Assembly (NCBI GenBank): GCA_002070205.1
Contig: MWCU01000054.1
Location: 11,968 to 75,967 of the forward strand
Direction: 5' to 3'
Length of the DNA stretch: 64,000 nucleotides
DNA from: Firmicutes bacterium ADurb.Bin182
Lineage (GTDB): Bacteria > Bacillota > Clostridia > Christensenellales > CAG-138
Shown: in pieces, positions 11,400 through 43,489 of the stretch
Layout of the letters: the number at the start of each line of letters is the position of its first letter
How positions within the stretch are numbered: the stretch's first letter is position 1
Notes under the pieces: model-generated
Database searches by the model: none
Seen by the model: the letters and a program-made list of their open reading frames with translations, nothing else
What the model was told of the DNA's origin: nothing
Translations under genes and position numbers: made by a program

Positions 11400-13943
11400 T
11401 TGTCTGGACCAGTCAGGCTCCTGTGTCCTCCGGTAGTTACGGTTACGGCGTTTGAGCGCTTTGAAATCAACAAAGCCATTGACGGCGCGCTGAAAAAGGA
11501 CGTCGCGTATATCCATGCTCCCGCAGGTTTCGGCAAGACGGTTGCCATGAGCATGTGGCTTGCAAGGAAGCAATGCAATGCGGCATGGATACCTTTCACA
11601 GTATATGACGACAGCCCTTCTGTTTTTTGTCGTTATCTTATAACGGCGCTTTTTAAACTTGAGGCCGGGTTGGCCCTATGTGCCCGCGATGTCCTAAATA
11701 ATCCCGGGTTTGATTCCGCGCCGTTCGAGTATCTCTTTAAAGCGCTTGCTTCAACAGCGGGCAGCGCTTATGGCGGCATAATTGTGCTCGATGATTTCCA
11801 CCAGATTCAAAACGAGGCAATACTCAAGGCTATGCCCATGATTATAAAAAAGCTGTTGCCGACGCATAAGTTCGCCATACTTAGCAGGCTGAAGCCGCCG
11901 GCGACGTTTTCCGATATGGCGGTCAAGCATCTGATAGGGGAGGTCACGGAGCACGAGCTGCGCTTTACAAGGCTGCAGATAGTCAGGCTTTACAAAGCCT
12001 GCGGGATAGAGCTAAGCCCGGCCGACGCGGCGGAAATCGAGGCCAAAACAGGCGGGTGGGCGCTGGGGCTGGGCGCGCGGCTAATATTCGGAAAATCAGA
12101 CAAAACGGAAAGCATGTACTGTGGAGATTCGGGCCGGCAATACATCAGCCAATACCTGAAAAATGAGATTTGGGACAAATGGGATGACAGCACACGCGAA
12201 TTCCTGATAAAGACCTCTATGTTGGAAGACTTGCCGGTCGAGCTGTGCGACACGCTGTGCAATTGCGATAGCAGGCAAACGCTGACTGCGCTTGCGGAAA
12301 GCAGCGGCCTGGTAATACGGCTCTCGGACGGATTATACAGATACCACCATATACTGCGCGATTTCCTGAGGCAACAGGCGGCAGAGTCGCGCGCCGCGCT
12401 TTCGCGCTGTTACGTCATTGCTGCGGACTATATGCACAAAAAGGGGAAGCTTCCGGCAGCGCTCGATTATTATAAGAAAAGCGCGGACAGCGAGGCGTTA
12501 AGCGCATTTTTATACAGCATATTTGATTATGATAATATGAATTCAAGCATAGAGGACATATACGATTCCTTTCTGTTTTTAAAAGAATTGCCCGCTGAAA
12601 CAATAGAAAACGATTTGCCGCTGCTGACATTGTACGCATGCATAAGCTATACCGGCGGCAATTTTGGGCAATTTAAGTCCGGCATGGCAAGGCTTAACGC
12701 TTACATGGAGAATTGTACGAATGTCAGTCCGAGGACGGTGGCCGGCGCGTTGCTGTTGCAATTTGCCAATCCGCTTATTCCGGCCCGCGAGATCGAGATA
12801 AAGGAAATATTCGGTAAATTTGAATTGCAAAGTATACCCGCCCTGTCCATCACGTTTAATCTTCCGTATCTGCACCGCAGCCACAGGGATTATTCGGATA
12901 TTGCAAACGACTGGGCTGAAACTGTGCCCGTGCTTGCAGAACGATTCAAAGCGATAGCGGGGGATATCATAGACATTTATATGAATGGGGTAGCGGGCGG
13001 CCTGCTCTATGAGCAGAACAAACTTGCGAGAGCGAGGGAGTACATGCTGAAAGCCCACAGCCGGCTTGCGGATAAAATAAATCCCGAGCTCAGGTTCGCG
13101 GTTCAGATGCACATAGCTTTGATATTTTTTGCGGAGGGTGATGAAAAAAACGCCTGGGACGCAATTGCTGCTGCGCAGGTGATGATGGACAACAGCAGCG
13201 CTTTATATCATGCAAAGAATTTAAATGCCATAATCACCAAATACCGCTTATATAAGGGCGACATTAATGCGGCAAGGGAATGGCTTTCAAGCTATATGGT
13301 AAGCGATACCGATAAGGTTACCTTGTTTCAATTATACCAGATATTGACAACTATACGCGCCAAAATTACTTTGGGCGAATTTGCTTCCGCGCTTATGCTC
13401 ATATCCAGCGCCGAACGAATCGCCGTTGATTTTTGCAGGCCGCTGGATGAAATAGAATTATATATACTGCGCGCTGTTGTGTACTGGAAAGAAAAAAGAC
13501 GAAGCAGTGCCGTCGATGCCATGGAGAAGGCCGTAATGCTTGCGAAGCCTTATGGCTATATCAGGCTGTTTGCAAACGAAGGCGCCGCGGTCATAACCAT
13601 GCTTCAGAAGCTGTACGGCAAAGTTTCCGCTGTTGCGGCAGAACCGGAACTGTTATGTTTTATACACGAGCTGATTATCTGCGCCAGTGAAAATGCGGAA
13701 GTTTATCCCGGGATGGCGTCAAGCGCGGAGGAGGAACTTGTTAAGCTGTCAAAGCAGCAGGCAATAATGCTTTCGCATATAGCCGGTGGAAAAAACATCC
13801 AGCAGATATGTAAAGCAACCGGATTAAAGCGCAATACGGTAAAAGCGCATTTGTATAAACTTTATGAGAAGCTGGAGGTAAATAACGCGACCGAGGCTGT
13901 GCTTAAAGCCTACCGAATCAAGCTGCTGGAGAAAAAGGAGTAA
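11400..13943 (+). CDS. MalT-like LuxR-family regulator (STAND ATPase + TPR-like region + C-terminal LuxR HTH)
   Basis: Walker A HAPAGFGKT and Walker B IIVLDDFH. C-terminal LSKQQAIMLSHIAGGKNIQQICKATGLKRNTVKAHLYKLYEKLEV. TTG start behind GGGAGGG. Confidence 0.8.
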   Translation: MSGPVRLLCPPVVTVTAFERFEINKAIDGALKKDVAYIHAPAGFGKTVAMSMWLARKQCNAAWIPFTVYDDSPSVFCRYLITALFKLEAGLALCARDVLNNPGFDSAPFEYLFKALASTAGSAYGGIIVLDDFHQIQNEAILKAMPMIIKKLLPTHKFAILSRLKPPATFSDMAVKHLIGEVTEHELRFTRLQIVRLYKACGIELSPADAAEIEAKTGGWALGLGARLIFGKSDKTESMYCGDSGRQYISQYLKNEIWDKWDDSTREFLIKTSMLEDLPVELCDTLCNCDSRQTLTALAESSGLVIRLSDGLYRYHHILRDFLRQQAAESRAALSRCYVIAADYMHKKGKLPAALDYYKKSADSEALSAFLYSIFDYDNMNSSIEDIYDSFLFLKELPAETIENDLPLLTLYACISYTGGNFGQFKSGMARLNAYMENCTNVSPRTVAGALLLQFANPLIPAREIEIKEIFGKFELQSIPALSITFNLPYLHRSHRDYSDIANDWAETVPVLAERFKAIAGDIIDIYMNGVAGGLLYEQNKLARAREYMLKAHSRLADKINPELRFAVQMHIALIFFAEGDEKNAWDAIAAAQVMMDNSSALYHAKNLNAIITKYRLYKGDINAAREWLSSYMVSDTDKVTLFQLYQILTTIRAKITLGEFASALMLISSAERIAVDFCRPLDEIELYILRAVVYWKEKRRSSAVDAMEKAVMLAKPYGYIRLFANEGAAVITMLQKLYGKVSAVAAEPELLCFIHELIICASENAEVYPGMASSAEEELVKLSKQQAIMLSHIAGGKNIQQICKATGLKRNTVKAHLYKLYEKLEVNNATEAVLKAYRIKLLEKKE

Positions 13944-18414: not shown

Positions 18415-18458
18415 CGCGCCGCCGTGATGCAGCTTATCGGCAATCCGGCAGCGCGCAA
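18415..18458 (-). repeat. 44-bp copy of the 23312-23355 terminator hairpin, overlapping the adhesin stop codon
   Basis: CGCGCCGCCGTGATGCAGCTTATCGGCAA..CGGCAGCGCGCAA, 42/44 identical to the upstream copy. Confidence 0.9.
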
Positions 18459-21400
18459 GTTTTAATATTAATGATGTTATCGGGTTTTTTTCGCTTCTTA
18501 ACTATCACGAACACCGTTAAGGCAAAGCCGGTAAATATCGCGGCCCATCCCGCCGCGCTTTCACCGCTTCCTGTTTTAGGGGGAGGCAGAGTCGCCGGAC
18601 CCCATGCAGCAAACAGAATAATGTCGCTGTTACCCATTATGAGCGGGCTTTCAACTCGAGTGCCGTCACGAAGCTCCCAGCCCAAGAATATAAATCCCGG
18701 TTTTGATAGCCCCGCGCCCGAGGCGAGGGTTATGCTGTCGCCCGTGTAATAGCGGTTCATATCCACGGGAACGGCGCCTGTTCCGCCGTTCGTATGGTAG
18801 GATACGGTATAGCGGTTTACTGTAGGTTCCGATTGCTCAGATTTTTTAAAAACCGCTTTAAAACTCATATTGCTGTCCACCATAACGGTTATTGGGTTAA
18901 CCTCCGAATAAAATACCCAACTGCTATCTTCGCTTAGTGCCGCATAAGCCGCGCCGTTCAATAATGCATCCGGATCGTTTTCGTTGACGGGGACATCACT
19001 GCTGCCGGTATTCCCGGGGACTAACCAATGAAGGAACGTGTAGCCGCGCCCGGGTACAGCCGTGAGAGTTACGGATGTTTCTTCCTGATAAGTGCCGCCC
19101 TGAGGATCGAACGTAATTTTGCCGCCGCCCTCGGAATCATCTTCTAAAACCGCATCCGCAGTCACGGTAAATGTACCAAGTTCGGTAAAGATTGCGGTAT
19201 AGGTCAGATCTCCTTCGATCTTTTCCGGGAATTCGGCTGACCATCCGCTGAACTTGTAGTCTTCATCCGCTATGGGAGTCGGCGTTGTTACACTTTCATC
19301 CCATGCCGAACCGGTAAGAATACCGGAAAATTGTACTTGTGTTTCGCCGCCGGTAAAAGACCCGTGTTCGCCCGCTATAAATGTGACGGTGTGCCAATCG
19401 CTTTCTTTAATTTTAAAATATGCGGTGTAGACAGCCGTTTCATATTTACCGTCTTTCTGTCCGGGTATTATCGGATTTTCGGTTATATGCATGCTGTCAT
19501 CATCGCGTGTCCAATAGTCAAATTCATAGCCCGGCATAGCTTCTGCTTCTGAACCTTGCGCTTTGCCCGTTTCGGGGTTAAGTTCTTCGCTGTTCCGGCT
19601 GACCGAACCCATTTCATTGTCGGCGGATATATAGCTGATGGTTACTTTATCAAGCTCAGTAAAATACGCGGTATAGGCAAGATTTTCGCTCCAGCCTTCG
19701 TCTGGTCTGTTTACTGTTAATGTTTCCTCTGAGGTTACAGTGTCGGTCCCTTTTCTCCACTCCACAAAACGGTAACCCGGTTTCGGTATCGCTTTCGAGC
19801 TGACAGACGATACGCCTGAGTGCAAAACAGCGCTTGTTAAGTCCACCGTGCCCATGCTGTCATTGTCGGCTCTGAACGTGACAGTATATGTTTTTTCAAA
19901 GTTTGCGGCATATGTGACGGGTACCCAGACCGCTCCCGGTTTTGTCGGCACAAAGTTCGCATCCGTGCTGACTTCAACGCCATCACAAGTCCAGTTAACA
20001 AAGCGGTAGCCGTCGCTTGCCGTCGCGGTTGAGCCTTGCGCTATGCCTGTTGCAGGGGCAAGGCTCTCGCTGCTTCGGTCGATCGAACCGCCGACGCCCG
20101 CCGTGTATGTTATGGTAACATTGGCGTTTTCTATGAAATTTGCGATATAGGTGACTGGCATCCAGACCGCTCCCGGTTTTGTCGGCACAAACTTCGCATC
20201 CGTGCTGACTTCAACGCCATCACAAGTCCAGTTAACAAAGCTGTAGCCGACGTCTGCCGTTGCCTTTGAGCCTTGAGCTATGCCTGTAGCCGGGGCAAGG
20301 CTTTCGCTGCTCGGGTCGACCGAACCGCCGGCGCCCGCCGTATATGTTATGGTCACATCAGGTTTTTCTCTAAAGGTTGCGGTATATGTTTCAGTTTCGG
20401 TGATTGTTTCCGGCAAGACGGGGTCCCATTTATCGAACTCATATCCGGCATTTGCGACAGGTTCCGGCTCTGTGTCTATGGCGTCTTCCCATGCCGTTCC
20501 TGTGAGAATATCGGTAAATTCAGTTTTTGTTCCGGCGGCAAAATATCCGTGATCGCCTGCTTCAAACGTAACGGTATGCCATTGACCGGGATCCTTTATA
20601 AAGCTTACTTTATAAGTTATGCTCGCAGTTATCATGCTTTCGCTATTGCTGTCCGGCAATTCGGGACTCCAATTCGCCGCATAACCATTGTCCGGAACCG
20701 GCGTAGGTACTGTTATTCCGGCATCTTTCCATTTCGTACCGTTTAAAATCTCATACTGCGTTTTACCGTTAAGATGTCCGTTGCCGCCGTCTGTTTCGAA
20801 CAAGACTTTATGCCACATAGCGGGATCCTTTTCAAAATATGCGGTATAAGCCGCATCGCTCCAGCCGCCGGCGGGTTTAGAAACCGTCAGCACGGCGTTT
20901 GAGGAAACAAAATCATTGGAGTCTCGCCATTCAACAAAACGGTAACCCGTATTCGGGGTCGCAGCGGAACTGACCGAAACCGTATTCAGGTCCACGCTTG
21001 CACTTGCGGGGCTGACCGTACCCATGGCTGAATCGCCGGAATTAAAAGTAATCGTATGTGGGACTGGCTCGAAGTATGCGGTATAAGCCGCATTACTCCA
21101 GCCGCCGGCGGGCTTAGGAACCGTCAGCACGGCGTTTGAGGAAACAAAACCATTGGAGTCTCGCCATTCAACAAAACGGTAACCCGTATTCGGGGTCGCA
21201 GTGGAACTGACCGAAACCGTATTCAAGTCCACACTTGCACTTGCGGGGCTGACTGTACCCATGGATGAATCGCCGGAATTAAAAGCAATCGTATATGGTA
21301 CAGGCTCGAAGTATGCGGTATAAGTTACATCACTCCAGCCGCCTGCGGGTTGAAAAACCGTCAAAACGGCATTATTGGAAACGGGATTCTCGCCGTTTCT

Positions 21401-23029
21401 CCACTCAATAAATCGATAGCCCGCATTAGGAATCGCAGTGGAGCTTACAGATGATACGCCTGAATGCAGAACAGAGCTTGTTAAGTCCACCGTGCCCATG
21501 CTGTTATTGCCGGATTCAAACGTAGCGGTATAAGTTTTTTCAAAGTTTGCCCTAAATGTTAAGGGTATCCAGGGACCTCCTTCCGGTTTTGGCGGCACAA
21601 ATTTCGCATCTTGACCAACTTCAACGCCGTTATGGGTCCAATTAACAAAGCGGTAGCCGTCGTTCGCTGTCGCGGTTGAACCTTGCGCTATGCCCGTAAC
21701 CGGGGCAAGGCTTTCGCTGCTTCGATCGACCGAGCCGCCGACACCTGCTTCGTATGTGATGGTTACATCGGCATTTTCTCTGAAGTTTGCGGTATAGGTG
21801 ACAGGTACCCAGACCACTCCCGGCTTTGTCGGCACGAACTTTGCATCCGTGCTGACTTCAACGCCATCACAAGTCCAGTTAACAAAGCTGTAACCGATGT
21901 TCGCCGTTGCGGTTGAGCCTTGCGCCACGCCTATCTTAGGGTTAAGCCACTCGCTGCTTGGGTTTATCGAACCGCCTGCTGTTGCTTCGTAATTGATCGG
22001 TATATGCTTAAGTTCTTTGAATAGCGCTGTATAAGTTTTTGTTTCTGTTATCGTATCCGGCAATTCGGGATCCCATTTATCGAACTCGTAGCCGTCTGAC
22101 GGGTGTATGGACGGCATTGGTTTTATTGCCGTATTCCATGGTGTTCCGGTTATTATATTGGAAAAGATTTTTGTACCGAGTAATGACCCATGTTCGCCCG
22201 CCTGAAGCGTAACGGTAAAGCGTTCCTCGGGATTCTCTTTCCATCTTGCGGTATAGGTCTTATCTTGATTTATTATGCCTGTATCGCCGGGCAGCGCAGG
22301 ATCCCACCTGTCAAATAAATATCCGGGTTTGCGGTTCGTTTCTGGTACCGTTATGCCGGCGTTTCTCCACTCTGTGCCGCTGGTGACTCTGAACTCCGCT
22401 GTCCCCGAAAGCGTGCCCTTATTCGGATCTTCGGTCACGAAATTTATCGTGTACTTGGGGGAATAGTAAACTCTTAACTGTAAGTGGTCGAGCCATATAT
22501 CCTTACTTCCTCCCGTGCATTTCAGCCAGACGCGTAATGGATCATTTACCAGCCCGGGCGTCCACATGTCATAGCCCCACTTTTCGGTGGGACCGCCCAG
22601 TATTATTGTCGACCATGAAGTACTGCTGACAGCCCCTGTGTCTTTAAAATAAGTAAAATTGCCTACCGGCGCATGATTACTATCACGCAGAGATACTTCC
22701 AGCGAGCGGTATTCATTTTCATTTCCATTTTCGTTGCATCGAACCCTCAAGTGCACTTCAATCCCATCTATCCTGCAGTCTTCGGGCACAATGGGTGCGC
22801 TATGTTCTGTGAAAGTATATTCTACTATTGAATCTTCAATGTAAAACCTGGCATATTGTCCGTCAGATGAATAGGCATTTTCCGGGTCACTTACCAACTC
22901 AGGGTTGCTAAAGCGTATATAGGACTGTGCGCTTAACAGCCCGGTATCATCCGCCAGCGCAAGCGGCCTTGCCATGACGAATATGAAAGAAAAAATCAAG
23001 ACCAACGCGAGAATTCTTCTGCACGACAT
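18434..23029 (-). CDS. giant sortase-anchored adhesin with about 16 Listeria-Bacteroides-type (GYxFxxW) repeat domains
   Basis: Start ATG 23029 behind GGGGAGG. Signal peptide ...RPLALA. Repeated ~75-80 aa modules ending ..YTA.F. C-terminus has PPKTG, a hydrophobic helix and KKRKK. Confidence 0.85.
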   Translation of the reverse strand: MSCRRILALVLIFSFIFVMARPLALADDTGLLSAQSYIRFSNPELVSDPENAYSSDGQYARFYIEDSIVEYTFTEHSAPIVPEDCRIDGIEVHLRVRCNENGNENEYRSLEVSLRDSNHAPVGNFTYFKDTGAVSSTSWSTIILGGPTEKWGYDMWTPGLVNDPLRVWLKCTGGSKDIWLDHLQLRVYYSPKYTINFVTEDPNKGTLSGTAEFRVTSGTEWRNAGITVPETNRKPGYLFDRWDPALPGDTGIINQDKTYTARWKENPEERFTVTLQAGEHGSLLGTKIFSNIITGTPWNTAIKPMPSIHPSDGYEFDKWDPELPDTITETKTYTALFKELKHIPINYEATAGGSINPSSEWLNPKIGVAQGSTATANIGYSFVNWTCDGVEVSTDAKFVPTKPGVVWVPVTYTANFRENADVTITYEAGVGGSVDRSSESLAPVTGIAQGSTATANDGYRFVNWTHNGVEVGQDAKFVPPKPEGGPWIPLTFRANFEKTYTATFESGNNSMGTVDLTSSVLHSGVSSVSSTAIPNAGYRFIEWRNGENPVSNNAVLTVFQPAGGWSDVTYTAYFEPVPYTIAFNSGDSSMGTVSPASASVDLNTVSVSSTATPNTGYRFVEWRDSNGFVSSNAVLTVPKPAGGWSNAAYTAYFEPVPHTITFNSGDSAMGTVSPASASVDLNTVSVSSAATPNTGYRFVEWRDSNDFVSSNAVLTVSKPAGGWSDAAYTAYFEKDPAMWHKVLFETDGGNGHLNGKTQYEILNGTKWKDAGITVPTPVPDNGYAANWSPELPDSNSESMITASITYKVSFIKDPGQWHTVTFEAGDHGYFAAGTKTEFTDILTGTAWEDAIDTEPEPVANAGYEFDKWDPVLPETITETETYTATFREKPDVTITYTAGAGGSVDPSSESLAPATGIAQGSKATADVGYSFVNWTCDGVEVSTDAKFVPTKPGAVWMPVTYIANFIENANVTITYTAGVGGSIDRSSESLAPATGIAQGSTATASDGYRFVNWTCDGVEVSTDANFVPTKPGAVWVPVTYAANFEKTYTVTFRADNDSMGTVDLTSAVLHSGVSSVSSKAIPKPGYRFVEWRKGTDTVTSEETLTVNRPDEGWSENLAYTAYFTELDKVTISYISADNEMGSVSRNSEELNPETGKAQGSEAEAMPGYEFDYWTRDDDSMHITENPIIPGQKDGKYETAVYTAYFKIKESDWHTVTFIAGEHGSFTGGETQVQFSGILTGSAWDESVTTPTPIADEDYKFSGWSAEFPEKIEGDLTYTAIFTELGTFTVTADAVLEDDSEGGGKITFDPQGGTYQEETSVTLTAVPGRGYTFLHWLVPGNTGSSDVPVNENDPDALLNGAAYAALSEDSSWVFYSEVNPITVMVDSNMSFKAVFKKSEQSEPTVNRYTVSYHTNGGTGAVPVDMNRYYTGDSITLASGAGLSKPGFIFLGWELRDGTRVESPLIMGNSDIILFAAWGPATLPPPKTGSGESAAGWAAIFTGFALTVFVIVKKRKKPDNIINIKTCALPDCR
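20833..21545 (-). repeat. three tandem ~237-bp intragenic repeats (two nearly identical)
   Basis: 20833-21069 and 21070-21306 differ at only a few positions. 21307-21545 is more diverged. Confidence 0.85.
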
Positions 23030-23304
23030 ATTTTCTTGCCTCCCCGGAATATTGAATTGCAACTGTTTTCCCTTTTATTATGTATCCCAAAAGTCCGTGC
23101 CGCTGAAGGCACGTTCCTAAAAAACCTGCTCAGATGCTGTTTACCCGTCAGGGTAAGCAACAGTTCCCTATTAAAGAGTAGCATAAAAAAAAGGCTGCGG
23201 CATCGTACCTAAGTACGATATTGCGACAAAATTCTTATATAAGGGAAGACTGATTAAGGCTTTCCTAAATAACCGGTCGACTTGATGCCGCCGGAGTCGG
23301 CAGA

Positions 23305-32373: not shown

Positions 32374-33396
32374 TTGAATATGGTTCCGGGTATCATCAAA
32401 ATATTCGCGGGAAGAACGGGCAGGGTTTTCGCCTCGAAAATGTGCGATTATCTCGGTGCAAAGCTGGGTGATTCCGAGACGATCAGGTTCTCCGAAGGGA
32501 ATATATTCGTAAAGGTAAATGAATCCATAAGGGATAAGGATGTATATATCGTTCAGCCCATAGGCCGCGAACCCAACGATGAATTTGTGGAACTTCTTTT
32601 CTGGATAGACGCATTCAAGCGCGCAAGCGCAAATTCCGTTACCGCCATCATCCCGTATTTCAGCTACGCAAAAGGAGATAAAAAGGACGAACCCCGCGTT
32701 TCCATACGCGCGAGAGTATGTGCCGAATGCATTGAGCTTGCGGGAGCGGACCGCATTTTGACAATGGACCTTCATAGTGCTCAGGTCCAGGGATTTTTCA
32801 AAAAACCGGTCGATCATCTGTACGCGAGTTCCATTCTGTGCGAATATGCAAGAAGAATAGGCATTGTGGATGAGGACCTCGTGGTCGTATCGCCGGACGC
32901 CGGATTCGCGAAACGCGCGAGGCAGTTTGCAAATGAGCTTGGCTGCCCGGTCGCTATCGGCGACAAAACGCGCTCCGATCATGACGAAAAAGCAAAAGTG
33001 CTTGAGATCATCGGCGACGTAAAAGGCAAGAATTGTCTTGTCGTCGACGACTTTACGATTTCAGGCGGAACTTTGGTCGATTTGGCTCTCGGGCTCAAGG
33101 ATAAGGGAGCGAAAAGGATATTTGCTTTCCTGTCGCATATAGTTTTAGGCGAAGCCGGAGTCAAAAAAATCGAAGAGAGTCCGATTGAGCTGCTGGTTTC
33201 CACCGATACCGTGCAATGCCCCGCCGTGAAAGGATCGGGCAAGATCAAAATCGTTTCCGCCGCTCCCATGTTTGCGGAAGCCGTCAGGATCATCCACGAC
33301 CGCGAACCCATGAGCAAGATGTTCACTGAGTCCGCGTCAAGGCGGATGTTCGATATGAGCTTCGCGTCGCAGCTGAGCATAAAGGATATTAGATAG
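32374..33396 (+). CDS. prs: ribose-phosphate pyrophosphokinase
   Basis: DLHSAQVQGFF and PRPP-loop VVDDFTISGGTL motifs. The start could be TTG 32374 or ATG 32380. Confidence 0.9.
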   Translation: MNMVPGIIKIFAGRTGRVFASKMCDYLGAKLGDSETIRFSEGNIFVKVNESIRDKDVYIVQPIGREPNDEFVELLFWIDAFKRASANSVTAIIPYFSYAKGDKKDEPRVSIRARVCAECIELAGADRILTMDLHSAQVQGFFKKPVDHLYASSILCEYARRIGIVDEDLVVVSPDAGFAKRARQFANELGCPVAIGDKTRSDHDEKAKVLEIIGDVKGKNCLVVDDFTISGGTLVDLALGLKDKGAKRIFAFLSHIVLGEAGVKKIEESPIELLVSTDTVQCPAVKGSGKIKIVSAAPMFAEAVRIIHDREPMSKMFTESASRRMFDMSFASQLSIKDIR

Positions 33397-33575
33397 TTTT
33401 CAGTATATAGTAACAAGTATTCAGTTGAATGAAAAAAATCTGCCTCCCGGCAGATTTTTTTTGAACTAATAACTTTATCAGTTTTCAGTATATAGTAATA
33501 AGTATTCAGTTTATGAAAAAAAATCTGCGGCAGCAGATTTTTCATTAAATTATAACTTTATCAGTTTTGAGTATT
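33397..33575 (+). repeat. two and a bit tandem ~84-bp modules (AT-rich box + AAATCTGCC..GGCAGATTT hairpin)
   Basis: Units 33397-33481 and 33482-33564. A partial third unit is cut off at 33575. Confidence 0.85.
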
Positions 33576-33702: not shown

Positions 33703-33741
33703 CTGAACTTATAACTCATTACTTATTATTGATAACTGTTC

Positions 33742-33766
33742 AAATCTGCCTCCCGGCAGATTTTTC
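33742..33766. terminator. AAATCTGCC-TCCC-GGCAGATTT hairpin (bidirectional terminator-like)
   Basis: Perfect 9-bp stem with A/T runs on both sides. It lies between the convergent prs and murC genes. Confidence 0.6.
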
Positions 33767-33799
33767 ATGAACTTATAACTGAATACTTATTACTGAGAA

Positions 33800-35629: not shown

Positions 35630-36901
35630 TTATTTGGTTATCATCCAGGATTGAATGATATATCCGCCGGCAGCGGCATGCTGGGCTTGTGCGAGCGTAA
35701 TAATTATCCCGCTTACGAACCTCGCATCCTGCGTTCCCGGCGTGCCGAACATGATGTTCCCGGTTAAAACGACCGTGTTGTTTTCCCGCTTCGCGTCGGT
35801 GAATTCAATGCTGAACGGATGGGATACTTCTGAGAGTTCAACCGTATAAAGGCCGTTTTCCTCTTTAACCGAAGGGACGGCGCTGTCGGCGCCCGGGAAT
35901 TGTCCGGCGCTGAAATAGCTTCTGAACAGCTCGTCCATGTCTTCCCGTGTCAGCTGCAGCCGGGTCCCGTATTTTGAGGGCCCCGCGTCTTCGCTCAAAG
36001 TATCCGCGATGAACACGGCTGAAACGAAAGGGGACGGAACCGTGTCGAAGCTCTCGAAATTAACGAGGGTGGCGGCCGCAAGCCTTGAAAACACCGGAAG
36101 CAGTTCCCGATAGGACTCGACGCTGAGCACGTCGCCCACGAATGAAGGATAGATTTCTGTTTCGGAAAGCTCGAATACCTTGAATCCTTCGCCCGCTTCA
36201 TAAAGGACGCCGGGATCAAAGAATACCGCATAGCCTGTTTCGGTCAAATAAAAGCCGTTGTAAATGTCGAGCGCCTGAAGCACGGTGTCCCTTGTGATGC
36301 CGCCGAACGCGTTCATGCGGTTCCATATCAGCTGGGCTACAAGCACGTCCGCGTCATATATGCCGGTGATTTTTGCAAGCGACATCTCGTCGCCGTCGGG
36401 CGAAAGCACGAGAGCGTATTTATGATGAAGGGTTTGCGCGCCCTTTCTCGTTTCCTCCGTGAAAATGATATTTGTATAGTCTGTAACTTTTGTAACCTCC
36501 ACATTTACATAAGTGGTGAGCTGCTCGCCGGATCCTTCGCCCGGCTGCTCGGTGATCCTCGCTATAAGCTCCTCCTCATACAGGGCGACGTTCGCGTTAA
36601 AAGCGTCCGCCGCGTCGTTCTGCTCTGAAAAGACGGGAAGAGCATATATAAGGACATGTTCCGCGTTGCTTATATCGCTTCCGTCCGGAAAGCAAAGAAG
36701 ATGGGTTTCAACTGTATAAGTCCCGTCAGAGCTTACTACAGGCTCGGGTATCAAAGGCTCGTCCGGAGTTTCCGTCTCATATGGCGTTCCGGCGGGAACG
36801 GGAGAAGGCGATTCGAAAGGGCCGGGAACGGCTCCGGGATCGCACGCCAAAAGCAAAAACACTATTGCGGTAATTATGAAAATCAGCGTGATTTTACGCA
36901 T
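35630..36901 (-). CDS. hypothetical lipoprotein
   Basis: ATG 36901 behind AGGGAGG. Lipobox LLLAC. No confident family, though it may be DUF3298/RsiV-like. Confidence 0.6.
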   Translation of the reverse strand: MRKITLIFIITAIVFLLLACDPGAVPGPFESPSPVPAGTPYETETPDEPLIPEPVVSSDGTYTVETHLLCFPDGSDISNAEHVLIYALPVFSEQNDAADAFNANVALYEEELIARITEQPGEGSGEQLTTYVNVEVTKVTDYTNIIFTEETRKGAQTLHHKYALVLSPDGDEMSLAKITGIYDADVLVAQLIWNRMNAFGGITRDTVLQALDIYNGFYLTETGYAVFFDPGVLYEAGEGFKVFELSETEIYPSFVGDVLSVESYRELLPVFSRLAAATLVNFESFDTVPSPFVSAVFIADTLSEDAGPSKYGTRLQLTREDMDELFRSYFSAGQFPGADSAVPSVKEENGLYTVELSEVSHPFSIEFTDAKRENNTVVLTGNIMFGTPGTQDARFVSGIIITLAQAQHAAAGGYIIQSWMITK

Positions 36902-36993
36902 ATATGCCTCCCTTAGGATATTCGTACATATTATAATAACACCTATCATTGCGCGCTACAAATAAATTAACGGTGAACAGCTTCGCTCAGAGT

Positions 36994-37010
36994 AGTTATA
37001 AGTAATAAGT
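36994..37010 (+). repeat. 17-bp direct repeat at the left edge of the RHS cassette island
   Basis: AGTTATAAGTAATAAGT here versus AGTTATCAGTAATAAGT at 41866-41882. Confidence 0.8.
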
Positions 37011-38013
37011 ACTAATCACATGGGAAAAGACCGGCTCCGATGATCCGATCTATTACCTATACGACGCGAACGGGAACCTCTGGGGTCTGAAATACGATGG
37101 CAGCACGTACTTCTATATCCGAAACGCCCAAAACGATATCACCGGAATAGTTGATTCGACCGGCGCTGTTGTGGTAACGTATAGCTATGATGCGTGGGGC
37201 AAGCTGCTTGACGTATCCGGCACTAAGGCAGCTACATTAGGGCAGGATAATCCGTTCCGTTACAGAGGGTATTATTACGATACGGAGACGGGACTGTATT
37301 ATCTGCAGAGCAGGTATTATAACCCGGAGTGGTGCAGGTTTATTAATGCGGATGTCTACGTTTCCACCGGGCAGGGGTTGTTGGCAAGCAATATGTTTGC
37401 GTATTGCGCGAATAATCCGGTATTGCTAAAAGATCCAAGCGGGTTTGCCTACGTTATAGGTGATGATGAACATGGTAGGCCAATACTGTATTTTCCCCCA
37501 AAATCTTCACCTTCTAAAACAAATTCTGAAAGAGTAATTGATACAGTAAAGAATTCATCAACATATAAGAAAAATTCATCGGATATTTCTACTATTGTTC
37601 AAAGAAGTGGTGGAACGATAATAGATGATTCAAGAATCGAAATAAACAACATAAGAACATCATTTGTATCAGACAAAATTGCATATAACACATATATTAA
37701 AAACTGCATAGCTGAGACAGGTAATATAAACAGAGGAAAGAGTATATTGGCTGCAGCATTAGGGATGGTACCAGGTATGGGTGAAGTAGCTACTGTAATT
37801 GATTATGTAACAGGTTTTGACACTGAAATTAACGGAGATTATTATGATACATTAGGAGGTAACTATGTATTCGCGGATGTTACTTATATAGTAGATTTTG
37901 ATTTTCGAGGAATCGGTGAAGGAAAGAAGATCACATATTATGGTAGTGTTGTTGTTGGTCCGTCAATTGATAATCCCTTAAATAGTGTTTCTTGGTATGG
38001 TTGGAAAGATTGA
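37009..38013 (+). CDS. orphan RHS-core tail + DPSGF junction + ~190-aa unknown C-terminal toxin domain (no ATG/RBS)
   Basis: The frame opens at 37009 right after a stop. Reads ...YDAWGKLL..DNPFRYRGYYYDTETGLYYLQSRYYNPEWCRFINADVY...NNPVLLKDPSGF. The only listed start is GTG 37171. Confidence 0.75.
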   Translation, partial: VLITWEKTGSDDPIYYLYDANGNLWGLKYDGSTYFYIRNAQNDITGIVDSTGAVVVTYSYDAWGKLLDVSGTKAATLGQDNPFRYRGYYYDTETGLYYLQSRYYNPEWCRFINADVYVSTGQGLLASNMFAYCANNPVLLKDPSGFAYVIGDDEHGRPILYFPPKSSPSKTNSERVIDTVKNSSTYKKNSSDISTIVQRSGGTIIDDSRIEINNIRTSFVSDKIAYNTYIKNCIAETGNINRGKSILAAALGMVPGMGEVATVIDYVTGFDTEINGDYYDTLGGNYVFADVTYIVDFDFRGIGEGKKITYYGSVVVGPSIDNPLNSVSWYGWKD

Positions 38014-38033
38014 TAGAATTGGAGATTTTTATA

Positions 38034-38984
38034 ATGGAAACATTGAAAAGAACTCTAGTATGCGCATTGCTGATTATTATAATGATTTTGACTGGTTGCA
38101 GACCAAACAATAAATCGGATTACAATAGAAATTCTTTAGTTGCCGCATTGAATTTAGACTGCCAAGTAAGTATTAACAATGACGGTGCGGTTAACGTGAT
38201 AGATAAAACTCGAGGTAGTGGCTTTGATTTCAGCGACTGGCAGGACATAAAGAGCGTTTCAGCAAGCGAAGTTCAATTAGGTGCAATAAAAGTAGATGGT
38301 TCGGTGGTTATGACAGGCTATCCTGGTTTTGTTATGGACTTGACCGATTGGAAGGATATTGATATGTTGGAATTTACCGATTTTGCAGCATATGGACTGA
38401 AAGAAGACGGAACAATAATTTTTCAAAACGTGGATGATTCTCAGGTAGATGAAACTGTCAATGAAACGGTGAAGGTATGGAGAGATATCAGTTACATTGA
38501 TACTGGATTTCAAGCTATTGTTGGTGTTACGAAAAACGGTAAGGTCGTTGCATCGGTTCCTCAATTTCCGGATTTAGAAAAGAGAGTGAATCAATGGGAA
38601 GATATTAAAATGGTTAGCATATCTAATAACTTCTTTGGAAGAGCCAGGATAGTCGCAGTAAAAAACAACGGAGAAATCGTTGAAGAAAGGTATGAAGAAT
38701 CTGAAATCATTAAATACGATTTAGAGTCTTATGAAGATCTAAAAGGTGCTGTGAAAATCTGTGCAGGAGATTATTTTACCGCTGGATTAATGCCTGATGG
38801 GACATTAAAAGTAAGATGTGGCCTTGATTATGATAAGCGGCTTATGTCAGAAGTAGAAGGAGAATTTTTAGATCTAAGAAATCTAGATAATACCAAGGAC
38901 GTGGCAGACATAAACAGCTTTGAGGATATTCTCGTTGTTTTGAAAAATGATGGTACAATTTTGGTTGGTGGTTTTGAAGATTAG
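38034..38984 (+). CDS. lipoprotein with beta-propeller-like DG(T/S)hh repeats; putative immunity protein 1
   Basis: GGAGA RBS. Lipobox MILTGC. Six repeats centred on DGSVVMTG / DGTIIFQ / NGKVVAS / NGEIVEE / DGTLKVR / DGTILVGG. AT-rich. Confidence 0.6.
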   Translation: METLKRTLVCALLIIIMILTGCRPNNKSDYNRNSLVAALNLDCQVSINNDGAVNVIDKTRGSGFDFSDWQDIKSVSASEVQLGAIKVDGSVVMTGYPGFVMDLTDWKDIDMLEFTDFAAYGLKEDGTIIFQNVDDSQVDETVNETVKVWRDISYIDTGFQAIVGVTKNGKVVASVPQFPDLEKRVNQWEDIKMVSISNNFFGRARIVAVKNNGEIVEERYEESEIIKYDLESYEDLKGAVKICAGDYFTAGLMPDGTLKVRCGLDYDKRLMSEVEGEFLDLRNLDNTKDVADINSFEDILVVLKNDGTILVGGFED

Positions 38985-39025
38985 ACTCTAAGCGTGATTG
39001 TGACATACGATATACGATTGTTACA

Positions 39026-39631
39026 ATGAACTACAACGGCAGCGTGTACTTCTATGTTCGAAACGCGCAGAACGACATCGTAAGCATAGTTGATTCCACC
39101 GGCACTGTTGTGGTAACGTATAGCTATGATGCGTGGGGCAAGCTGTTTGACGTGTCCGGTGCTAAGGCAACTACATTAGGCAAAGACAATCCGTTCCGTT
39201 ACAGAGGGTATTACTTTGATTCGGAAACTGGATTGTATTATCTGCAGAGCAGGTATTATAACCCGGAATGGGGAAGGTTTATCAATGCGGATGTCTACGT
39301 TTCCACGGGACAAGGGTTATTGGCGAGCAATATGTTTGCGTATTGCGCTAATAATCCGGTTATGTTTTCCGATGAACATGGTTATCGTTATGCTATTTCT
39401 GCTGGTATAGGAGGACTTAATGCTGAAGATAGAGCTCGTAAAGAAATGAAGGATCTTCAGTCGCTCAAGGGGATAACTGGTTATGTAAACGATCAAAGAA
39501 AATTACCGGGTCTACAGCTTGGTTCAAAGGGCAATTTACCTAAACATGGGTGTGGGGTTGTTGCTGTACATAACGCCATTGTTTTAACTGGGAAAGAGTC
39601 TAATTTATATGATGTAATATATGTATTTTAA
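39026..39631 (+). CDS. orphan RHS-core tail + DEHGY junction + N-terminal part of a Cys-containing toxin domain
   Basis: Same core tail as 37009-37446. After the junction only 83 aa remain, containing Q...KHGCGVVAVHNAI. There is no SD before ATG 39026. Confidence 0.7.
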   Translation: MNYNGSVYFYVRNAQNDIVSIVDSTGTVVVTYSYDAWGKLFDVSGAKATTLGKDNPFRYRGYYFDSETGLYYLQSRYYNPEWGRFINADVYVSTGQGLLASNMFAYCANNPVMFSDEHGYRYAISAGIGGLNAEDRARKEMKDLQSLKGITGYVNDQRKLPGLQLGSKGNLPKHGCGVVAVHNAIVLTGKESNLYDVIYVF

Positions 39632-39944
39632 TGATGATTCAAATATAATTAAAAGAACTTTTGTAAATCCGATAGCGATTATGAAATATCTAAATAATCA
39701 AGGTTTAAATACATCGATTAATTGGTTCGATAATAAAGTATTAGATTCTGATGCATGTATTGTTATTTATAAATGGGAAATAAATGATAAATGGGATTTA
39801 CATTACCAGACTATAGCAAAAGTAAATTTCGGCGATGCAAATACTTATATAGCATTTAGTAAAACTGGTTTTTATACAAATCCCCAAGATTATATAAAGG
39901 AAAACGCTATAACAGAAATGTATGGGATTATTGGTATAAATTGA
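39621..39944 (+). CDS. 107-aa protein: either a small immunity protein or the frameshifted C-terminal half of toxin 2
   Basis: Overlaps the previous ORF by 11 nt in another frame. Contains WDLHYQTIAKV, which resembles a papain-fold His motif. Confidence 0.5.
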   Translation: MYFNDDSNIIKRTFVNPIAIMKYLNNQGLNTSINWFDNKVLDSDACIVIYKWEINDKWDLHYQTIAKVNFGDANTYIAFSKTGFYTNPQDYIKENAITEMYGIIGIN

Positions 39945-39957
39945 GGTGAATAGGATT

Positions 39958-41205
39958 ATGGCGCGTAAAATATTTAAATATTTGCTAATACTCATGATAT
40001 TGAATATAGTCGTGGGATGTACCGGTTGTGTACATAGTTATAAAAATTTTGAAGGAAGCCTTACTCGAAAAGTAATGCTAAAACAGAATGTTTACAGCAG
40101 TACCGGACAATTTGCCGCTTTCAATAAAGATCGAATATACTATATTTCACAAGAAGCAGATAATAATGGGATATACAGTATGAAGACTGATGGATCGGAT
40201 ATAAAGTTTGAGTTGGAAACTACAAAAGTCACGAGAATACAAGTTACAGATAACGAAATATATTATGTTGGTGTAAAAGAAGAAAGAGAGAATAAAAACA
40301 GGCTCTATGGACTTTATGAATTCGATAGATCCAATCCTGGTATAAAAAGTGTTAATTATACAGATATTCAAAGCGACGCAACAACAGAAGATGCATTTGT
40401 TTTTGCAAGTGGTACTATCGCAGTTATGGATGAAACAGGACTTTTTAGTACATTGCAACCCTCCACCGGAATTTTTGTTGTATCAAATAATACCAATTAT
40501 AATTTTGTCAAAAGGCCTGCTAAAATATCTGAAGACTTCTTTATTGCGGAATTTCAAGATTTCATTATCGTTAGCAGGTCATATCCTAATGCACATAAAA
40601 GTAAAAATATGATAAATGATTTCGCTAGCAGTCTTGTTGATGTACATAGCGGTGAATACGTAATGGATAATCTTTTTGAAGATGAGTTACGAGTTTTTTA
40701 TTCGGATGAAAAACAAATCATTAGTTCCCTAAATAATGTTTTAATTTTCATAGACCGCGATACACTGACAGAAAACAGAACGATAACTATTGGTAAAACT
40801 AATGAGAATCAGGAAGTAGCATATATTTTTAAAGATGGTGATATTTTATATGTAGTCATGAGAAACGATAATGATAGATATAACAGCAGCCTTTTCAGCG
40901 TGGATATATCTTCCGCGGAAGTAAAAAAGATAACATCGCTTAATGCTGGTAAATTAGTATTAAACATTGATAAAGGCAAGATTTATTGGGTAAAAGGTGC
41001 GAATATTTATTGTAATCTAGTTAATTCGCAGCGGATTGGGGACCGAGTAAGTAAAATTACAATCGATGAAACTATTACAGATAGTGATAATAGCATCGAA
41101 ATCGCCGGTAATTGGCTATTTATTTATAAAAACTCGGACATTAATGAACTTTGTTACAAAATTAACTTGGCGAATCTTCAAGTAATAAAGATTAATCGCC
41201 AATAG
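39958..41205 (+). CDS. DUF5050-like beta-propeller lipoprotein; putative immunity protein 2
   Basis: GAGGTG RBS. Lipobox VVGCTGC. Repeated ..IYY....D.NGIY.M..DGSD.. motifs. Confidence 0.6.
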   Translation: MARKIFKYLLILMILNIVVGCTGCVHSYKNFEGSLTRKVMLKQNVYSSTGQFAAFNKDRIYYISQEADNNGIYSMKTDGSDIKFELETTKVTRIQVTDNEIYYVGVKEERENKNRLYGLYEFDRSNPGIKSVNYTDIQSDATTEDAFVFASGTIAVMDETGLFSTLQPSTGIFVVSNNTNYNFVKRPAKISEDFFIAEFQDFIIVSRSYPNAHKSKNMINDFASSLVDVHSGEYVMDNLFEDELRVFYSDEKQIISSLNNVLIFIDRDTLTENRTITIGKTNENQEVAYIFKDGDILYVVMRNDNDRYNSSLFSVDISSAEVKKITSLNAGKLVLNIDKGKIYWVKGANIYCNLVNSQRIGDRVSKITIDETITDSDNSIEIAGNWLFIYKNSDINELCYKINLANLQVIKINRQ

Positions 41206-41237
41206 TATAAATAGGATAATATCGTTACTAATATATA

Positions 41238-41714
41238 AAACTGCGACAGACGCAGCCATATCGACTACGGAGTACAATATCATCGGTGACCTAATAACGT
41301 GGGAGAAGACCGGCTCCGATGATCCGATCTATTACCTGTACGACGCAAACGGGAATCTTTGGGGACTGAACTATGATGGCGCTGTGTACTTCTATGTTCG
41401 AAACATGCAGAACGATATCATCGGAATAGTTGATTCCGCCGGCGTTGTTGTGGTCGTATCTTTACGACGCATGGGGAAATCTTAGTATTACGGGCACCTT
41501 GGCAACTTCATTAGGGCAGGATAATCCGTTCCGATACAGAGGGTATTATTACGATACGGAGACGGGGCTGTATTATCTGCAGAGCCGGTACTATAACCCC
41601 GAGTGGTACAGGTTTATAAATGCGGATGTGTTCGTTTCCACAGGACAGGGATTGTTAGGTTATCGAGGCCGCGTTCGCTGTTGTGACGCCGATCTCCGCA
41701 CCTGCATCAGTTAA
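41238..41714 (+). pseudogene. third RHS-core tail, frameshifted and truncated
   Basis: Reads ...WEKTGSDDPIYYLYDANG..., then has a deletion where the other copies read VVTYSYDAWG. Homology ends after GQGLLG with no junction motif and no toxin domain. Confidence 0.8.
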
Positions 41715-41838
41715 AATACCGGTCGGCTGGGGTTCACCATCACCGCTGATACAAGCGGCTTCCTCTTTTCTTCCGAACGGCGGGCAAACTCGTTCAGAAG
41801 GTAGTGTTCTGGGACGAAGCCCATATCTTTAACATAAG

Positions 41839-41919
41839 AAAAAATCTGTTGCCGCAGATTTAAACAGTTATCAGTAATAAGTTATAAGTCAAAGAAAAAT
41901 CTGCCGGGCGGCAGATTTT
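41839..41919. repeat. two AAATCTG..CAGATTT hairpins flanking the right-hand 17-mer
   Basis: Hairpins at 41839-41860 and 41895-41919, with the 17-mer at 41866-41882. The second hairpin probably terminates the minus-strand 5'-nucleotidase gene. Confidence 0.7.
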
Positions 41920-41959
41920 CTCATTAACTAAATACTGACTATTGACTACTGAATACTTT

Positions 41960-43489
41960 TTACCCTACCCAGTTTATCCTCGGGGTATCGTCGAATACCG
42001 GGCCGTATGTTTTCAGGTATTCCGCAAGCATTTCGGCGTCGATTCCGTAAAAGCCGGAAAACTCCCTGTCGAGCATGGTGTAGCCGTCGCCGCCCGAACC
42101 CATGAATTCATTTGTAGCGAGTTTATAGGTTTTGCGAAGGTTGACAGGTTCCCCGCCCACCTTCACATCGCTGACCTTCAAAGTGGATTTGTTGAATGTG
42201 AACGTTATGCCCGCAACGTGCGGGAACGCGCCGTTTGCGGCGGGATACTTGCTCGTGCCCCATTCAAGCGCTTTTACGATGTCAGCCCCCGAGAGCTCAA
42301 CTGTAACCACCACATTTCCGAACGGCATTACGCCGAGCAGATCGCCCATCGTTATGCTGCCCGCCTTTATCGTCTGGCGGATATTCCCGCCGTTCCAGAT
42401 CACCGCGTCGGCGCCTGTGAGAGTGAGAAAAGCGTGCGTCGCAAGGTGCCCGAGATTGCTCTCGCCGGCTCTGACAATTTCACGCTCGCCGATAAGGTCT
42501 ACCGGGGTGGAGCAGATCACGGTGTCCGTCAAAGCTCTTTTCTGCTTTAAAAGGTAATCGATGCTGTCCTTGACTTTGGAGGAAACGGGATACTCTTTTG
42601 CCTCTTCGTAATTGTCGAGATGTGCTTCTGTCGTAAACTTCCCGTCATCGAACGTCACGGTGACCTTGCCGACATATTTTGAGTATTCGCCGGCGGAAGC
42701 GATCAGAGTCTTTTTGACCTTTTTGCCGTTCTCCAGCACGGTATGGCTGTGGCCGTCTATTATAAGATCTATTCCGCTCACCTTTTTTGCGATGTATTCG
42801 GTGGTCATGGTCGCGGATTCGTCCAGCCCGACATGCGCGATGCATACGATGTAATCCGCTCCAAGTCTTTTAAGCTCTTTCACCGCCCATTTCGCCATGG
42901 TTCTGGCGTTTTTGAACTCGAGGCCGATCGTGTTGTCGGGATGAGCCATCACCACGGTATCCTGCGTTGTGAGGCCGAAGAAGCCGACCCTCTTCCCGTC
43001 GACATTCCTTATCATATAGGGAGGGAACAAAAACCTGTTCGAATCCTTGACAACTATATTGGCGGACAGGTATTGTCCGAAGCAGTTGTAACTCAGCTCT
43101 TTGAGCCGTTTCCAGTCGTAATTGAATTCGTGGTTTCCCGGCACAAGATAATCGTAGCCGGTTTCATTAAGTACGAACGGCGCGCTTTGACCTTTGCTGA
43201 GGTTCGTTATCAAATCGCCGTGAATGGAATCGCCCGCGTCGATAAGCAGCACGTTTTTGCCTTCGTTTATAAGGCGCTGCTTCTCTCCGGCAACCTTCGC
43301 GAGGCCGATATAGCCCTGGGTCGCATCCTCATAGTAGCGGGAGTGCACGTCGTTCGTGTGCATTATGATGAGTTCCCACTCCGGTTCGGCGGGCGCGCTT
43401 ATAAGGACCGGAGCCTCGGCAGCAGCAGCGGCGATTAAGGAGAAAATCATCATCAAGACCAAAAACAGGGAAAACAGCTTCTTTCTCAT
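41960..43489 (-). CDS. secreted bifunctional metallophosphatase/5'-nucleotidase (UshA-like)
   Basis: Signal peptide. HTNDVHSRY, DAGDSIHG and GNHEFN motifs. C-terminal 5'-nucleotidase domain. Confidence 0.85.
   Translation of the reverse strand: MRKKLFSLFLVLMMIFSLIAAAAAEAPVLISAPAEPEWELIIMHTNDVHSRYYEDATQGYIGLAKVAGEKQRLINEGKNVLLIDAGDSIHGDLITNLSKGQSAPFVLNETGYDYLVPGNHEFNYDWKRLKELSYNCFGQYLSANIVVKDSNRFLFPPYMIRNVDGKRVGFFGLTTQDTVVMAHPDNTIGLEFKNARTMAKWAVKELKRLGADYIVCIAHVGLDESATMTTEYIAKKVSGIDLIIDGHSHTVLENGKKVKKTLIASAGEYSKYVGKVTVTFDDGKFTTEAHLDNYEEAKEYPVSSKVKDSIDYLLKQKRALTDTVICSTPVDLIGEREIVRAGESNLGHLATHAFLTLTGADAVIWNGGNIRQTIKAGSITMGDLLGVMPFGNVVVTVELSGADIVKALEWGTSKYPAANGAFPHVAGITFTFNKSTLKVSDVKVGGEPVNLRKTYKLATNEFMGSGGDGYTMLDREFSGFYGIDAEMLAEYLKTYGPVFDDTPRINWVG

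Follow-up and report, generated by a model that had tools for sequence, protein, structure and literature searches.

An array of RHS-tail cassettes in a Clostridial genome

The 64-kb stretch of DNA analysed here (the window) belongs to a metagenome-assembled genome (MAG) of the Clostridia, Firmicutes bacterium ADurb.Bin182. It carries three direct copies of a 300–430-nt block (37009-37446, 39026-39385 and 41238-41655) encoding the same RHS-core tail, which a sequence-only reading had described as a detached array of orphan toxin cassettes. MAFFT aligns all three copies, and pairwise DNA identity by BLASTN is 87% for blocks 1 and 2, 84% for blocks 1 and 3 and 77% for blocks 2 and 3, in agreement with the high but imperfect identity judged by eye. 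The array stands as described, but two of its starts had to be moved: homology begins at 37009-37015 in block 1, not at 37021, and at 39026 in block 2. In blocks 1 and 2 the common part (the handle) is followed by a C-terminal (CT) toxin tip and by a candidate immunity (imm) gene, in open reading frames (ORFs) on the plus strand.

37009-37446, plus strand: block 1 handle, a 5′-truncated YD shell end and RHS-associated core (TIGR03696, E 7.9e-21, 74.4 bits; RHS_repeat), ending NNPVLLKDPSGF
37447-38010, plus strand: CT1, an intact 188-aa C-terminal toxin tip after handle 1
38034-38984, plus strand: imm1 candidate, a 316-aa lipoprotein with lipobox LTGC and RCC1-like repeats; GGAG Shine–Dalgarno (SD) sequence 9 nt before the ATG
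39026-39385, plus strand: block 2 handle, an RHS-associated core from an internal ATG (TIGR03696, E 1.6e-21, 76.6 bits), ending NNPVMFSDEHGY
39386-39944, plus strand: CT2, a toxin tip of ~185 aa split into ORFs 39026-39631 and 39621-39944
39958-41205, plus strand: imm2 candidate, a 415-aa lipoprotein with lipobox VVGC and DUF5050 (E 1.7e-9, 37.8 bits, cut-off 27); GAGGTG SD sequence 9 nt before the ATG
41238-41655, plus strand: block 3, a dead RHS tail without toxin tip (TIGR03696, E 7.7e-14, 52.0 bits)

All three blocks exceed the curated cut-off of 32.5 bits for TIGR03696 (Rhs_assc_core). Given these RHS-core matches and the lack of a full-length rhs gene in the window, their description as orphan RHS-tail (rhs-CT) cassettes is upheld. 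The cores of blocks 1 and 2 end at a PxxxxDPxG-type boundary. The switch into unrelated, AT-rich sequence that had been seen in both blocks comes after this NNPVxxxDxxG boundary, and GC content is 24–40% beyond it (toxin tips and downstream genes) against ~50% in the flanks. The AT-rich tips are horizontally acquired, and because the downstream genes share their low GC content, the composition indicates that tips and downstream genes were acquired together. Tip sizes fall within the ~160–210 aa range of the tail family. The ORFs of block 1 (280 aa) and block 2 (201 aa) are both annotated ‘WapA precursor’ in NCBI.

As first noted from the sequence, block 1 has no ATG or ribosome-binding site: its frame opens at 37009 after the TAA at 37006-37008, with only ~50 aa of YD repeat ahead of the core, and its first canonical start is a GTG at 37171 that lacks an SD sequence. 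Block 2 does begin at an internal ATG (39026), likewise without SD sequence. Both frames open mid-shell, and neither bears a signal peptide; the secretion or trafficking N-terminus of a full-length RHS toxin is absent from the locus. What is present has the make-up of an orphan module, that is, a 5′-truncated core without initiation signals followed by a variable tip.

Behind each tip, in turn, stands an intact gene with SD sequence and ATG, which encodes a large beta-propeller-type lipoprotein that is a candidate for the immunity function. The two lipoproteins are unrelated and not paralogues. By its position and the low GC content it has in common with CT1, imm1 is a candidate immunity partner of that tip.

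From GTG 37171 on, both CT1 and its handle are intact. CT1 has only two homologues among 1.84 billion representative proteins, a 192-aa stand-alone protein and a 430-aa protein (P0124) in which a CT1-like C-terminus follows a non-RHS N-terminal region; since it is also found on a non-RHS carrier, CT1 is a modular toxin tip. No match to CT1 was found in Pfam, NCBIfam, PADLOC or PDB sequences, and its AlphaFold2 (AF2) model, built on a three-sequence alignment (predicted local distance difference test score (pLDDT) 53.7), retrieved nothing from the PDB with Foldseek at E <= 0.001. The contig of P0124 is 1.7 kb long and shows no neighbours, and so lends no support to a toxin–immunity pairing. Inside CT1, ~190 nt before the imm1 start, lies the best sigma-70-like match of the region (37817-37845, plus strand; TTGACA-17-TATTAT, 11/12), which could drive immunity-only transcription.

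CT2 is at present a frameshifted pseudogene, because an intact homologue, the 175-aa protein P0121 (74% identical), spans both halves in a single frame. The split is caused by one extra T in the run at 39626-39629; dropping one T joins the two ORFs. A second MAG, GCA_022706985.1, has the same frameshift. P0121, a stand-alone protein, was the one homologue found in a protein search covering matches up to ~1.75 times the query length. Neither CT2 nor P0121 has a credible match in Pfam, NCBIfam, PADLOC or PDB sequence searches, and the AF2 model of P0121 (pLDDT 40) was not used. What follows the stand-alone P0121 ORF is not a DUF5050 protein but a membrane protein that carries an Lcl_C domain, and the CT2–imm2 pairing is thus unsupported by this neighbourhood. 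The exact imm2 protein from ATG 39958 has no record in the protein collection searched.

Block 3 was rightly called decayed. A 2-bp deletion after 41454 sets it apart from blocks 1 and 2, and the tail breaks off near 41655 at ...GQGLL.

The array has no adjacent master gene

A full-length RHS toxin has a YD-repeat shell of more than 1,000 aa. The absence of any such ORF from the window was confirmed by TBLASTN with four full-length Clostridial RHS shells, which returned nothing, and no full-length rhs gene was present in the ~8 kb before or ~2 kb after the window that could be recovered from other assemblies. The only very long ORF of the window (18434-23062, minus strand) encodes a 1,542-aa surface protein unrelated to RHS, with at least nine divergent InlB B-repeats, a Listeria-Bacteroides repeat and an LPXTG anchor.

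We found no scanned public sequence that shares the handle at recombination-grade identity. The best tail match in a scan of species-representative genomes, all of them other than this MAG, had 67–69% amino acid identity. An exact 32-mer common to blocks 1 and 3 had no match in metagenome contigs; a degenerate 31-mer retrieved 15 contigs, none of which exceeds ~76% identity across the bulk of the handle, with 87% as the maximum in short stretches.

Is a detached array unusual, as the sequence-only reading supposed? We surveyed GTDB species-representative genomes, one per species, and at each of 75 Clostridia loci carrying the tail measured the open frame upstream and the YD-shell homology; 52 loci with at least 6 kb of upstream sequence were informative.

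Shell of at least 3 kb (master gene, often then 1–8 orphan tails): 35 of 52 loci
Partial shell only, 0.9–3 kb: 10 of 52 loci
Shell below 0.9 kb: 7 of 52 loci

An adjacent full-length rhs gene is therefore lacking at 17 of the 52 informative loci, which, like the present array, do not lie directly 3′ of a full-length rhs gene with the same handle. More detached cases occur on long contigs, among them a closed 2.37-Mb genome, a 930-kb contig and a four-tail array beside an integrase. On the strength of the survey and these long-contig cases, we conclude that detachment is not unusual, contrary to the initial impression. The full-length Clostridial relatives carry Sec signal peptides. In canonical arrays, the handles of master and orphan are 80–95% identical, and the handles of the window (77–87%) are within or slightly below it. 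A 539-bp handle is shared at 93% identity by a detached orphan (locus L029) and a master on another contig (L012) in the isolate Clostridium sp. C8-1-8, which means that detached orphans can coexist with distant masters.

Two loci have very long tail arrays. Clostridium leptum DSM 753 (DS480350.1; L030) has one master followed by eight orphan tails within 15 kb, and Clostridium subterminale JCM 1417 (L028) has 8–11 tails or fragments in 20 kb with only ~0.8 kb of shell homology. A 575-aa protein on an ENA contig (P0007) has two RHS core ends in one ORF, the first ending ...NNPVNMVDPTGH and followed by a new YD segment, the second ending ...NNPVVRADDEGD and followed by a tip; it has the look of a displaced tail joined in frame to the orphan behind it. 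Two ENA gut contigs of 243–309 kb (L003 and L004) have seven RHS-tail matches on both strands, four of them in called genes of 330–575 aa, interleaved with small ORFs and an ankyrin protein and adjoining phage-type integrase and helix-turn-helix genes. Orphan cassettes may here form a mobile island. The 575-aa protein is indexed in 158 blocks of the collection.

Cassettes vary between strains, with most breakpoints in handles

The array differs between strains over one tract, which reaches into the divergent lipoprotein gene at 35630-36901 (minus strand, lipobox LLAC).

36713-41424, unstranded: strain-variable tract, 4.7 kb in the window versus ~1.4 kb in Logan contig L107, with flanks more than 99.8% identical

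Contig L107 (SRR29782968) runs from a 5′-nucleotidase gene through a capsid-gene fragment and block 3 to the lipoprotein gene ~1 kb further on. Its allele has a single orphan, with a YD extension ~125 aa longer, and cassettes 1 and 2 are missing as a unit. This one-block allele is robust, because one 13-kb contig spans the whole of it. Of the 45 mismatches to the window on the right side, 35 are in 41270-41423, and the next 6 kb has none; of the 86 on the left side, 84 are in 36713-36979. This distribution puts one end of the exchanged tract at the 5′ end of the lipoprotein gene and the other at a breakpoint in the block 3 handle. The left breakpoint lies inside the lipoprotein gene, at whose 5′ end the left-side mismatches cluster. 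The first ~60 codons and leader of that gene (36713-36949) differ by ~30% between strains that are otherwise about 99.8% identical. The 3′ part of block 3, from ~41424, is common to the window and L107 and includes the same deletion and truncation, and block 3 is for this reason probably the oldest resident of the locus.

A further allele, from SRR17648133, is identical to the window at the left junction and over 37539-39145 (CT1, imm1 and the start of block 2), whereas its divergence is 19% in 37017-37203 and 17% in 39146-39226, two stretches that lie within handles. All breakpoints lie within handles except the one at 36713 in the lipoprotein gene. At the level of sequence comparison, the strain alleles are the signature of cassette-level exchange via the handles. 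The blocks would have been no more than dead remnants, by the reasoning of the sequence-only reading, if no full-length gene in the genome had the handle and strains had shown no exchange; strains do differ by cassettes, with most breakpoints in handles.

Edges and authenticity of the locus

The island is bounded by the following features.

36987-37008, plus strand: left junction, AGTAGTTATAAGTAATAAGT, a fragment of a dispersed intergenic repeat, then the TAA at 37006-37008 that closes the RHS frame upstream
41658-41827, minus strand: fragment (~170 bp) of an HK97-type phage major capsid gene, frameshifted (Pfam Phage_capsid PF05065, E 1.5e-6, 28.3 bits, cut-off 24.2)
41836-41960, unstranded: two hairpins at the right edge of the island, part of the dispersed intergenic repeat, the second (41895-41920) scored terminator-like

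Sequence in common with the cassette-less strain allele stops at ~36987. The upstream neighbour is, as first described, the divergently oriented lipoprotein gene, and on the right the island adjoins the convergent 5′-nucleotidase gene. The capsid fragment is fused to the truncated end of block 3 in every strain allele seen, and no further prophage genes lie near it. A phage origin of the RHS tails found little support, in the form of two weak matches in viral contigs. The dispersed repeat (~55–125 nt) occurs in the window at 33395-33558, 33714-33796 and 41836-41960 and in L107 at 12000-12120, and consists of hairpins (AAAAATCTGCC...GGCAGATTTTT) and a AGTAATAAGT-type motif. One copy lies at the border of the island, and the left junction of block 1 consists of a fragment of the motif; in the cassette-less allele, the spacer is filled with copies. 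The 64-kb window contains no tRNA, and a terminator scan was at chance level.

Could a mis-assembled or chimerically binned MAG have fused RHS tails to an unrelated chromosome? Repeated handles are hard to assemble, and several contigs from other samples end within handles. However, the second, independent MAG (GCA_022706985.1) reproduces the left junction, cassette 1 and cassette 2 over 12.9 kb with three mismatches and no gaps (99.98% identity), and its gene call for imm1 is the same. In a third sample, Logan contigs extend across the left junction, which is identical there too (L106), and across the junction of imm1 and block 2 (L111), while L109 and L107 span the passage from block 3 through the capsid fragment to the 5′-nucleotidase gene. 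Since the second MAG and the Logan contigs reproduce the junctions, the locus is not an assembly artefact, and we give this explanation next to no credence.

Interpretation

We think it likely that the locus is a master-less orphan rhs-CT/immunity island, in which the toxins are undeployable, the immunity genes probably work and cassettes turn over by recombination between handles. It would be what remains of a Sec-exported, WapA-like RHS polymorphic-toxin locus without adjacent delivery gene. In its present state, none of the three toxins would be expected to be made and exported. The two lipoproteins are probably extracytoplasmic immunity proteins, to judge from their position; as cognate immunity proteins that are still expressed, they may guard against the RHS toxins of competitors. 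With the lipoproteins displayed outside the membrane, the toxins would act on the cell envelope. The conserved handles would supply the homology for recombination that adds, removes and reshuffles cassettes. Only cassette 1, with its intact CT1, might be reactivated, and this would require its recombination onto a full-length rhs gene.

Several observations weigh against this account. The case for an immunity role of the lipoproteins consists of position, co-acquisition and intactness. At 316 and 415 aa, imm1 and imm2 are far larger than the downstream ORFs of the tail family (median 157 aa), of which only ~8% are lipoprotein-like, and beta-propeller immunity proteins were unreported as of Zhang et al. 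2012 (PMC3482391). No toxin activity could be assigned to CT1 or CT2 from family, PDB or fold searches. A promoter scan was at chance level (16 sites versus 20.7 expected). The SRR17648133 Logan contigs are short, and because they end inside repeats, some of the mosaic pattern in the handles could stem from chimeric assembly of paralogous copies. Finally, if a master exists elsewhere in the genome, ‘reservoir’ would be as apt a word for the array as ‘remnant’.

That last point leads to the possibility, raised by the sequence-only reading, that the array is a silent reservoir, with which a distant full-length wapA/rhs gene sharing the handle occasionally recombines, swapping in CT1–imm1. The coexistence of detached orphan and distant master in C8-1-8 offers a precedent, CT1 and its handle are intact from GTG 37171, and the strain alleles indicate that handles are recombinogenic. 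Koskiniemi and colleagues are said to have established orphan activation by recombination in Salmonella in 2014. Against this stand the missing master in the window and its recoverable flanks and the lack of any scanned sequence with a sufficiently similar handle. Two of the three modules are dead, contrary to sustained selection on the toxins, and any recombination event between distant repeats, direct or inverted, would remove or invert at least tens of kilobases. We regard such a reservoir as plausible but rather unlikely. Less probable by far is that the modules are toxin–antitoxin (TA)-like, with the tail-CT proteins translated from the internal starts (GTG 37171 and ATG 39026) and acting inside the producer. 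Salmonella provides the model: such action is reported for its main and orphan Rhs-CT, and orphan Rhs-CT/RhsI with internal promoters and translation were shown to work like type II TA modules (Starsta et al. 2020, PMC7043789). Moreover, gene callers do predict the 280-aa and 201-aa ORFs. But neither start codon is preceded by an SD sequence, the scan gave no significant promoter signal, CT2 is frameshifted and the putative antidotes are exported lipoproteins, unable to neutralise a cytoplasmic toxin; the exported antidotes and the toxin frames without SD sequence in particular make internal expression of this kind improbable. The sequence-only reading had also allowed for some novel way of expressing the modules, which finds no support: the toxin frames lack SD sequence and signal peptide, CT2 carries a frameshift and block 3 is a dead tail. 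Three features of the locus had escaped that reading: the frameshift in CT2, the capsid-gene fragment and the two lipoprotein genes with SD sequences, which are the likely immunity partners.

A master-less orphan island, the reading preferred here, could also be given a more active role. Master-less RHS-handle arrays in Clostridia might be a working device for capturing immunity genes, with the handle as a portable recombination site, a proposal that we put forward tentatively and think doubtful. If true, a locus without delivery gene would import whole toxin–immunity cassettes from other strains and species, the target of selection would be the immunity genes for exported lipoproteins and not the toxins, and the beta-propeller lipoproteins would form a new extracytoplasmic immunity class directed against the two tips with next to no relatives.

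The value of the finding is limited but real. It reveals no new mechanism; new are two nearly unique toxin tips and unusual immunity candidates. These two near-orphan toxin domains and two large lipoproteins are candidate envelope-acting toxin/immunity pairs. The strain-level alleles document gain, loss and reshuffling of RHS cassettes via the core handle in an uncultured Clostridium of anaerobic digesters, even without an adjacent delivery gene. About one-third of the Clostridial loci with the tail family have no adjacent master, and the survey is useful for annotation because such ORFs are routinely mislabelled ‘WapA precursor’.

Comparison with known systems

The closest counterparts are the orphan rhs-CT/rhsI modules of Enterobacteria, in which toxin fragments lack initiation signals and the downstream genes have an SD sequence and start codon (Poole et al. 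2011, PMC3150448). The window has the same distribution of initiation signals, the same core truncated to a PxxxxDPxG-type boundary, an acquired unrelated tip with its own downstream gene, and a tandem array. It differs in that no full-length rhs gene lies immediately upstream, in its Gram-positive, Sec/WapA-type setting in place of a type VI secretion system, in downstream genes that encode large lipoproteins and not small cytoplasmic proteins, and in the prior inactivation of two of the three modules.

WapA of Bacillus subtilis and Streptococcus suis (PMC12704120) likewise belongs to a Gram-positive RHS family whose full-length protein carries a signal peptide. The ‘truncated duplications’ of S. 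suis are orphans that, as in the window, have no signal peptide and only part of the RHS core, and a WapA orphan of S. suis was shown experimentally not to be delivered (PMC12704120). In S. suis, however, the orphans lie directly behind full-length wapA; there is none near the present array, and the tips are unrelated.

A third likeness is to orphan immunity genes and polyimmunity islands (PMC3482391; in Serratia, PMC10539506; in gut Bacteroidales, PMC12247911), in that the functional-looking parts of the locus are putative immunity genes without a deployable cognate toxin. Immunity genes kept in this state fit a defence against non-self toxins. Polyimmunity loci are by definition uninterrupted by toxin cassettes (Zhang et al. 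2012, PMC3482391), whereas in the window handles and toxin tips stand between the two lipoprotein genes, which places the locus outside that class.

The defective rhs elements and ‘C-terminal tips’ of Escherichia coli, such as the rhsE pseudogene of K-12 (PMC3032704), resemble the locus in combining a partial core with a variable tip in decayed rhs genes. Most of the E. coli cases are tips behind intact genes or frameshifted full genes, unlike the window, from which the whole shell is absent. Decayed rhs genes and tips are an accepted part of rhs genome biology (PMC3032704). The present locus is an ordinary, well-documented case, and such leftovers are common in Clostridia.

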